In this document: piece by piece, positions 27,518 to 28,354 of the stretch | Numbering within the stretch: position 1 is the stretch's first letter | How the letters are laid out: each line of letters starts with the position of its first letter | NCBI GenBank assembly: GCA_051294905.1 | Contig: CM119371.1 | Coordinates: 15,376,001 to 15,440,000 of the forward strand | DNA length: 64,000 nt | Direction: 5' to 3' | From: Botryllus schlosseri | Lineage: Eukaryota | Made by a program: the position numbers and the translations under genes | Notes under the pieces: model-generated | Told to the model about the DNA's origin: nothing | The model's database searches: none | Seen by the model: the letters and a program-made list of their open reading frames with translations, nothing else

Positions 27518-28354
27518 ATGGAATTATCACGAGTATCACCTTCGCTCACTGAAGAAAAGGATGAAATTACATCCGGAGCATATTCCTTGGCGAGGAATTA
27601 CATCATGTACGAACTCGACGGCTCATGCGTTAAGGCAAATACGAAAGCAGAGAGAACCTTACGGCGAGTTGGGGATGAAATGTTTGAGCGACACCGAACT
27701 ATCGTAAACGCGCTCTCCAAACGTCTTCGCTACTGTGATGTAGAAGTCGATGAAAAATATGAAGAATATTCACCCGACGAGCGAATGTTCCTGATGATAG
27801 CTGATGGAATTTTCAAAGATACCCAAGAAAATTGGGGTAGGATTGTCTCTCTTTTTGTGGTCGCTAGCATTCTTGCTCGGAATAAGGAGGATGAACATCG
27901 CGGTGATCATATAGAAGGTATCATACAGACAGTTGGGAGTTACATTGGTAGTAGAAGACGAAAGTGGATAGCGCAAAACGGAGGATGGGTAAGCGATTTT
28001 ACAAGCCTTACTAAGGATTTAGGAATTATTATCTATAGCTCGAGGTACTACGATCCCCAGAACCCTTATCATCCCTCGAACCTTAGATTCCACCTTATAA
28101 TTTTGTTCTCAACTTTTCCCACAAAGCACTGTAATTTACTTTCCAAGCGCAGCGAACTTCGAATTACCTAACAAGTAGGCTACGCTAACTTTCTGTAAGA
28201 TTTGGAAGGCTAACATTTTTTATTATTGTTTCAGGACAGTTTTGTAGGATATTTCGATAACACAACATTCGGTAGCAATAAAGTTTGGAAGAGCCTCATG
28301 TTTGTTGGAATTGGACTGACGTCTATTGCAATGGCATTAACACGACAGCGATAA
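27518..28354 (+). CDS. Bcl-2 family protein (anti-apoptotic type, Mcl-1/Bcl-2-like), spliced, 196 aa
   Basis: join(27518..27988,28235..28354). BH4-like LARNYIMYEL, BH3 LRRVGDEMF, BH1 IFKDTQENWGRIVSLF, BH2 WIAQNGGW|DSFVGYF. Donor GTAAGC at 27989, branch CTAAC at ~28210, polypyrimidine tract and CAG at 28232-28234. Exon 2 gives the TM tail VWKSLMFVGIGLTSIAMALTRQR. Confidence 0.93.

Follow-up and report, generated by a model that had tools for sequence, protein, structure and literature searches.

Genes of the animal Bcl-2 family carry a conserved phase-0 intron that follows the BH2 tryptophan. A retained intron outside a cellular genome has been described for vNr-13 (HVT079/HVT096) of the herpesvirus of turkeys, which consists of two exons with a single intron, whose spliced transcript was confirmed, and for which a read-through form of 162 aa was reported from ORF calling (the portion of PMC7199394 cited here). 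By our own arithmetic, the lengths given in that portion imply a split of 134 + 45 residues, consistent with an intron just past BH2. Cargo with introns has also been described in nematode Mavericks, in which wasp and krma lie in a stretch of a few kb bounded by the left terminal repeat and the integrase gene (bioRxiv 10.1101/2022.07.12.499685, in part), and core Maverick genes are intron-less according to the part of PMC8097293 used here. Adintoviruses, which are animal Polintons, carry homologues of Bcl2 and of IAPs (Starrett et al., PMC8502044, in the text cited), and BCL2-like and BIR domains occur in planarian Burro retroelements (PMC6431247, in part). Thus, the single parts of the arrangement reported below, namely the intron of vNr-13, the introns of nematode Mavericks, and the Bcl2 of adintoviruses, are all precedented. 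No intron-bearing Bcl-2 in a Polinton or a tunicate element was found in a literature search that covered few subscription papers. The earlier note on this DNA had set the gene against classical viral Bcl-2 genes as typically intronless; that contrast has a published exception in vNr-13, and Maverick cargo with introns has been published as well.

The locus examined here lies in a window of 64,000 nucleotides, the whole stretch of DNA that was analysed, and holds a Bcl-2 gene that resembles vNr-13 in that one intron is retained and the layout is as in the cellular gene. vNr-13, however, belongs to a replicating bird herpesvirus, is 64% identical to chicken Nr-13, and was tested for function, whereas the gene in the window resides in an integrated tunicate-type Polinton, is 49% identical over exon 1 to its nearest named protein, Styela clava bcl-2-like protein 2 (XP_039252627), shows leader trans-splicing, and has a predicted function; the two are independent captures. 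As in the portion of the nematode Maverick study cited above, intron-bearing host-type cargo stands at the same position and adjoins intron-less core genes. The nematode cargo, in contrast, consists of proteases and kinases moved between species, and the authors report in that portion that they detected no Maverick transcription, whereas the cargo in the window is an apoptosis regulator closely akin to the host lineage's own gene and is covered by RNA reads. The adintovirus Bcl2 and IAP genes are alike in cargo type; introns go unmentioned in the main text of that study, and the text of its Fig. S2 labels no tunicate (PMC8502044). With the cellular Bcl-2 family and the Styela protein, the element protein shares the fold, BH1 and BH2, a 39-residue anchored tail, a donor that directly follows the BH2 tryptophan, and the possibility of a form without the anchor, but it is without ~45 residues found at the N-terminus of the Styela protein and has evolved faster. 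The carrier has the following features, in window coordinates.

24342..24347: left target-site duplication, CGTATC, 6 bp
24348..39020: decayed Polinton/Maverick of 14,673 bp with AGTAGT ends, integrated in an animal chromosome
24348..24615, plus strand: left terminal inverted repeat, with 42-bp tandem subrepeats
24864..25406, minus strand: ORF of 180 aa, no Pfam family
25363..25944, minus strand: IAP-like ORF with a single BIR (Pfam BIR, E 1.5e-18), one unbroken frame, no RING match
26722..27000, minus strand: ORF of 92 aa, no family; its top Atlas score, 0.83, is at chance level
28572..29189, plus strand: A32-like packaging ATPase (Pfam Pox_A32, E 8e-9)
30051..30949, plus strand: retroviral-type integrase with chromodomain (rve, E 2e-13; Chromo, E 4e-9), in separate ORFs in two frames
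31186..32636, plus strand: two ORFs in the minor-capsid place, no Pfam match
33035..34104, plus strand: gene for a double-jelly-roll major capsid protein, broken into two frames, 76% to P0258
34308..34763, plus strand: probable cysteine protease ORF, no Pfam match; partial duplicate at 35939-36325
38804..39020, minus strand: right terminal inverted repeat, matching the left at 91% over 138 nt and 84% over 157 nt
39021..39026: right target-site duplication, CGTATC, 6 bp, a perfect match to the left

A 6-bp target-site duplication serves as a criterion for Polinton/Maverick elements (PMC8097293, in the part cited). Terminal repeats with such a duplication, an integrase, a packaging ATPase, and a double-jelly-roll capsid were all found, which identifies the carrier as a Polinton/Maverick. 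The earlier note had called the gene viral; its carrier is an integrated, decayed element of this class and not a shown infectious virus. P0258, the relative of the capsid protein, scored 0.98 in the Atlas to clusters with double-jelly-roll-like members and matched PF21738 at E 0.011, below the curated cut-off, and the major capsid protein had no match by sequence among solved structures. By Polinton gene order, the two ORFs at 31186..32636 are candidate minor-capsid genes and the ORF at 34308..34763 is a candidate cysteine protease gene. The integrase and capsid genes are each broken into two frames. No ORF longer than 254 residues (stop to stop), and hence none of polymerase size, was present in 14000-44000, and six polymerase motifs were unmatched. 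The element at 24348-39020 is filed as a non-autonomous Polinton/Maverick derivative, which may hold a decayed polymerase remnant. Nested tandem duplications of ~1.5 kb and 505 bp in 34404-37412 include repeats of the protease-like gene's end, and they occupy the place where a polymerase might be expected. Viral contigs searched for the Bcl-2 protein and the capsid relative, and metagenome contigs searched with the Bcl-2 profile and the ATPase, yielded no related locus. The host is tunicate-like, given the 'Chordata 1' leader in the reads and the ascidian nearest named protein.

The Bcl-2 gene shares a cargo region, flanked by the left terminal repeat and the core genes, with the IAP-like ORF and the two ORFs of no family. 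In cellular IAP genes the BIR is often interrupted by an intron; the continuous frame of the IAP-like ORF suggests that the two cargo genes may have arrived by different routes. A 145-nt direct repeat (84%; 24790-24933 and 26393-26535) was observed 3′ of each of the two leftward cargo units, with further copies in reads of three of the sequencing runs described below (X3, X18, and X22), and raw depth was high at 24950-25119. Outside the element, the window contains an intron-less BTB-BACK-Kelch gene (5538-7145, plus strand) in three ORFs, apparently frameshifted and possibly a processed copy, and inverted-repeat pairs at 1367-4423 and 13527-18880 (417 nt at 95% and 379 nt at 97%) that resemble foldback/non-autonomous DNA transposons. 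The Bcl-2 gene itself is composed of the following parts, all on the plus strand.

27465..27486, plus strand: upstream spliced-leader acceptor region, ~44 nt 5′ of the Bcl-2 start, used in sister copies and diverged here
27487..27552, plus strand: upstream ORF of 21 codons, out of frame and overlapping the Bcl-2 start
27518..27988, plus strand: exon 1, 471 nt, 157 codons, ending in NGGW (Pfam PF00452, E 5e-21); its motifs are a first helix, a BH3-like motif at residue 47, BH1 NWGR at 105, and BH2 at 150
27989..28234, plus strand: phase-0 GT-AG intron of 246 nt, directly 3′ of the BH2 tryptophan codon
28210..28214, plus strand: putative branch point CTAAC, 21 nt upstream of the acceptor, predicted from sequence
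28233..28235, plus strand: 3′ splice site of the intron, where the host spliced leader is also joined in 18 X22 reads
28235..28354, plus strand: exon 2, 39 codons and a stop, beginning DSFVGYF
~28292-28342, plus strand: membrane anchor within exon 2, from hydropathy and homology
28567..28572, plus strand: candidate polyadenylation signal AATAAA, abutting the ATPase start codon

Inspection of the sequence showed that the intron begins with GTAAG and contains an in-frame stop. Two further CTAAC motifs occur in it, at 28168 and 28185, and pyrimidines make up 80% of the 15 nt upstream of its acceptor CAG. A 246-nt phase-0 GT-AG intron after NGGW, as first noticed in the earlier note, was thus borne out by its GTAAG donor, CTAAC, CAG, and in-frame stop. 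The chance of a GTRAG donor at a fixed codon boundary followed within 540 nt by an in-frame acceptor with a branch point was estimated at ~2.4e-5, a rough and merely indicative figure because the motifs were picked post hoc. Among the 12 candidate acceptors listed, that at 28234 ranked first both in hydrophobic score and in the quality of its pyrimidine tract, and alternative downstream acceptors were ruled out by a poorer tract and hydropathy. The hydrophobic stretch of exon 2 reached a Kyte-Doolittle 17-mer mean of 1.82, compared with 1.01 in the 60-residue read-through tail. Moreover, when exon 2 was aligned by itself with the C-terminal end of Styela clava bcl-2-like protein 2, 16 of 37 residues were identical (43%; E 2e-9 for the pair), and the element and Styela tails both run 39 residues past the BH2 tryptophan. 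The hydropathy and the match to the Styela tail agree with the proposal that splicing restores DSFVGYF and a C-terminal anchor. A second AATAAA, at 28277-28282, lies within exon 2 on the 5′ side of the anchor codons and is a candidate early polyadenylation signal. For the candidate signal at 28567..28572, raw-read depth was near zero past 28690, and no pile of read ends was seen among those listed. The 21-codon upstream ORF sits 3′ of the leader site and is predicted to be capable of damping Bcl-2 translation.

The structure model of exon 1 (pLDDT 87.8) comprised seven helices. Its best match among solved structures was zebrafish NRZ (TM 0.76), with chicken BOK at rank 2, and by sequence the best matches among solved structures were NRZ/BCL2L10 and then Mcl-1. 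The helical fold, BH1 NWGR, and BH2 GGW, with the C-terminal anchor contributed by exon 2, place this protein within the Bcl-2 family. A word-index protein search with exon 1 alone gave no match at E 1e-10, whereas a full scan and a profile search recovered Bcl-2 homologues. In two trees built on the core of exon 1 (46 rows and 25 rows, hand-picked among the homologue matches and midpoint rooted), the element copies fell inside a clade with the Styela protein, with support of 100/99 and 99. They stood on a long stem beside three unnamed and presumably cellular proteins (P0155-P0157) that are 61-66% identical to the Styela protein. Viral Bcl-2 folds were 9-21% identical to the element protein. 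The named adintovirus Bcl2 (Branchiostoma) in the viral fold library was remote (9% identity by fold alignment, TM 0.48, rank 43), and this remoteness fits a separate capture. The start codon of the element gene aligned about two residues past a Gln in P0155 and P0156 (27509-27520); this Gln may represent an acceptor read through, in which case the last two host exons alone would have been captured.

Our literature search returned no direct statement that a phase-0 intron is conserved just past the BH2 tryptophan. The position was assayed in homologues whose sequences had been predicted from genomic DNA and therefore run on through the donor. Among 250 such proteins examined, 238 had the BH2 motif, and in 177 of these the next residue was Val, as encoded by a GT donor that is read through; Val was followed by Ser, Arg, Gly, or Cys in 173 of the 177. 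An anchor was absent from 163 of the 177 Val-continuing homologues and present in 48 of the 61 others, giving an odds ratio of 43, the significance of which is overstated because the sequences are related. All eight of the closest unnamed relatives had Val after BH2. These read-through proteins indirectly point to a conserved intron after the BH2 tryptophan, and the intron of the element is most likely ancestral, as had been supposed. It is likely that the Bcl-2 gene was captured as genomic DNA, because the homologues have a donor at the same position and the gene is nested among ascidian relatives; the proposal in the earlier note of a genomic rather than an mRNA source thereby gains support from the ancestral intron position. 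The transfer would have run from host to element.

Next, RNA processing was followed in sequencing reads. Four of 24 listed runs (X1, X3, X18, and X22) were examined by alignment to 24950-30049 at 88% likeness. None of the 24 is recorded as RNA, and the RNA status of X3 is a guess; ~6% of the raw X18 run and ~13% of X22 were read, and the read differences, indels, joints, and loose ends reported are those among the matches listed. A joint from 27988 to 28235 that skips 246 nt with GT..AG ends was found in two of the four runs examined, X3 and X18. It was carried by one X3 contig (depth 2.9) and by two raw X18 reads with two starts, the latter being below the three-read listing threshold, so that the joint was listed by virtue of the X3 contig. 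This is the joint by which the earlier note had proposed to check splicing. Raw-read depth in X18 and X22 was zero in the intron bin 28010-28179, with the flanks covered on both sides. Similarly, in four X22 reads from a diverged copy, the BH2 codon was joined straight to an exon-2-like stretch, with 7 of 10 residues alike by eye. Reads at least 99% alike to this copy numbered 36 of 421 in X18 and 23 of 156 in X22, so that the reads were mostly from sister copies. The junction support, two raw reads and one contig, is thin and not assignable to the locus, and an intron-less DNA copy may have contributed the joined form. The joint agrees with nuclear, spliceosome-dependent expression as put forward in the earlier note, but such expression is simply expected when the carrier is an integrated element.

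Unspliced sequence was also present. X1 had no joint; it gave an unspliced contig (27622-28297), and its depth over the core was flat and DNA-like. In 13 X18 reads from a sister copy, the first donor letters were kept and were followed by another intron-like stretch with a stop after about ten codons, as judged by eye; X18 looks unstranded, and these reads may therefore be pre-mRNA or DNA.

Leader-joined reads were found at two sites. In 18 X22 reads, the entire host spliced leader was joined exactly at 28234/28235, and the stretch ahead of the leader is presumably a template-switch tail. Summed X22 depth was 17-36 over 28180-28519, compared with at most 3 across exon 1. An RNA joined to the leader at the intron acceptor has lost the Bcl-2 domain, and the first ATG of exon 2, at 28298, opens a frame of 18 codons that covers the anchor. 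In 12 X18 reads, the leader was joined near 27474, at the acceptor region upstream of the Bcl-2 start, where the X1 and X3 contigs have acceptor-like letters and no leader. The leader in these reads is the 'Chordata 1' consensus (PMC3795323, as given in its Table 1). A 5′ leader, an AG acceptor, and the lack of the leader from the DNA at that place indicate spliced-leader trans-spliced transcripts; the reads come mainly from sister copies, and a DNA retro-copy may be their source. In Ciona, leader trans-splicing takes place at the first cis acceptor (the part of PMC11155486 cited here), whereas the acceptor in the element is late in the coding sequence and its product loses the entire Bcl-2 domain.

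Exon 1 of the Bcl-2 gene was covered in both raw RNA runs (X18 and X22), and depth over the core genes at 28860-30049 was zero in both. In a selected subset of 11 listed exon-1 differences between this copy and the runs, seven alter a residue. Given these residue-changing differences and the broken core genes, the Bcl-2 copy of the 24348-39020 element may be drifting. Furthermore, contigs from X1 and X3 joined 28696 to ~31026 with a two-letter overlap, so that 28697-31025 is lost and the sequence to its left is kept; these are deleted derivatives without most of the ATPase and integrase genes. Splicing was ruled out for this joint, whose ends are not GT-AG and share two letters.

Taken together, we consider it probable that genomic capture, host-type RNA processing, a tail-anchored pro-survival product, and the lack of a selected switch jointly explain the locus. 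An ancestral Polinton would have taken up a piece of ascidian host chromosome that included the core coding part of a Bcl-2 gene of Mcl-1/Nr-13-like type together with its last intron, and this piece would have come to lie in the cargo region, flanked by the left terminal repeat and the core genes. Integrated copies would be transcribed by the host and processed like a host gene, with a spliced leader added ~44 nt 5′ of the start, as observed in sister copies, and the intron removed by cis-splicing, as observed at low depth. Since the anchor is located in exon 2, splicing would be required for the predicted product, a tail-anchored Bcl-2 protein of 196 residues. Most likely, on a judgment somewhat above an even chance drawn from the fold, the motifs, and the gene company, this protein would bind the BH3 helices of host killers at mitochondria or the ER and act for survival together with the IAP cargo, either sustaining the cell during activity of the element or giving an advantage to carrier cells. 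The intron would have been retained as ancestral and cheap, and intron retention and leader joining at the acceptor would most likely be by-products of host RNA processing that vary between copies. Capture and splicing are well supported, and pro-survival activity would follow from the features just named.

The three RNA forms might instead constitute a selected three-way switch, in which cis-splicing yields an anchored protein, retention a soluble one, and leader trans-splicing an anchor-only RNA, with copies or tissues tuning the anti-death output. All three forms were indeed seen in the family, and their shares varied by library (two spliced and 13 unspliced reads in X18; four spliced and 18 leader-joined reads in X22); in Ciona, moreover, weaker first donors accompany more trans-splicing at the first acceptor (PMC11155486, in part). 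The forms, however, stem from different copies with one library each, at ~6% and ~13% of the runs read, the unspliced X18 reads are open to the reading as pre-mRNA or DNA given above, and diverged exon-1 reads may drop out at the 88% filter, which would raise the 3′ share. In Ciona, too, the leader is commonly joined at the first cis acceptor (PMC11155486), and in flatworms it is joined at internal sites (PMC12582326, both in the parts cited). The earlier note had suggested that the unspliced form could act as a regulatory switch; unspliced sister-copy reads do exist, but the read-through tails are not conserved, being 15, 19, 26, and 60 residues long in four copies and alike only in the first few. 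Anchorless Bcl-2beta and Bcl-xbeta are known cellular forms of the family (PMC2691663, in the part cited), and together with the non-conserved tails this means that a switch is not demonstrated; we think it unlikely. If true, a multi-copy Polinton family would supply anchored or soluble Bcl-2, or an anchor-only micropeptide RNA, depending on copy and tissue, and would thereby set host cell-death thresholds.

Host-type processing of a functional gene, which we prefer, was also weighed against accounts that deny it a function, a genomic origin, or a pro-survival role. The split integrase and capsid genes, the polymerase that was not seen, the low read depth, the long stem, and the many residue changes between copies, whose proteins are 78-95% identical, would all suit a gene that was captured with its intron and is now neutral baggage, with weak transcription from copies in decay and no use to element or host. 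Nevertheless, copies whose protein differs from this one by 16-22% have preserved the reading frame, BH1, BH2, and the donor, the raw RNA runs cover exon 1 and leave the core genes at 28860-30049 at zero, and the derivatives that lost 28697-31025 keep the sequence to its left, and we regard baggage as quite unlikely. Capture of an intron-less cDNA with later gain of an intron at the same codon could appeal to the proto-splice-like G/G context of the site and to the introners that enter dinoflagellate Polinton-like elements (PMC11957031), but both position and phase exactly match the family-wide donor and that of all eight closest unnamed relatives. An origin from another virus is countered by the ascidian-type closest relatives and by the low identity of viral Bcl-2 folds, and we hold either course to be very improbable. 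Finally, the fold matches include BOK, BAK, and BAX, multi-domain killers have the same fold, and a toxin has been derived from nematode Maverick cargo (bioRxiv 10.1101/2022.07.12.499685, in part), all of which would accord with a pro-death or dominant-negative, toxin-like or lytic protein in place of a survival factor; with NRZ/BCL2L10 and Mcl-1 as the best sequence matches among solved structures and an IAP-like gene adjoining the Bcl-2 gene, we find this hardly credible.

An intron that is family-wide and kept in place is a clean record of the gain of cargo by a Polinton at the DNA level. The trees indicate a donor in the host lineage, separate from the adintovirus Bcl2 already known, and the element represents, after vNr-13 of the herpesvirus of turkeys, a second viral-type lineage that retains a Bcl-2 intron. 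With leader joining at the acceptor, the copies form a natural series in which competition between cis- and trans-splicing can be studied. RNA over the cargo exons, with core genes silent in the runs read, makes the effect of a Polinton on host cell death testable.
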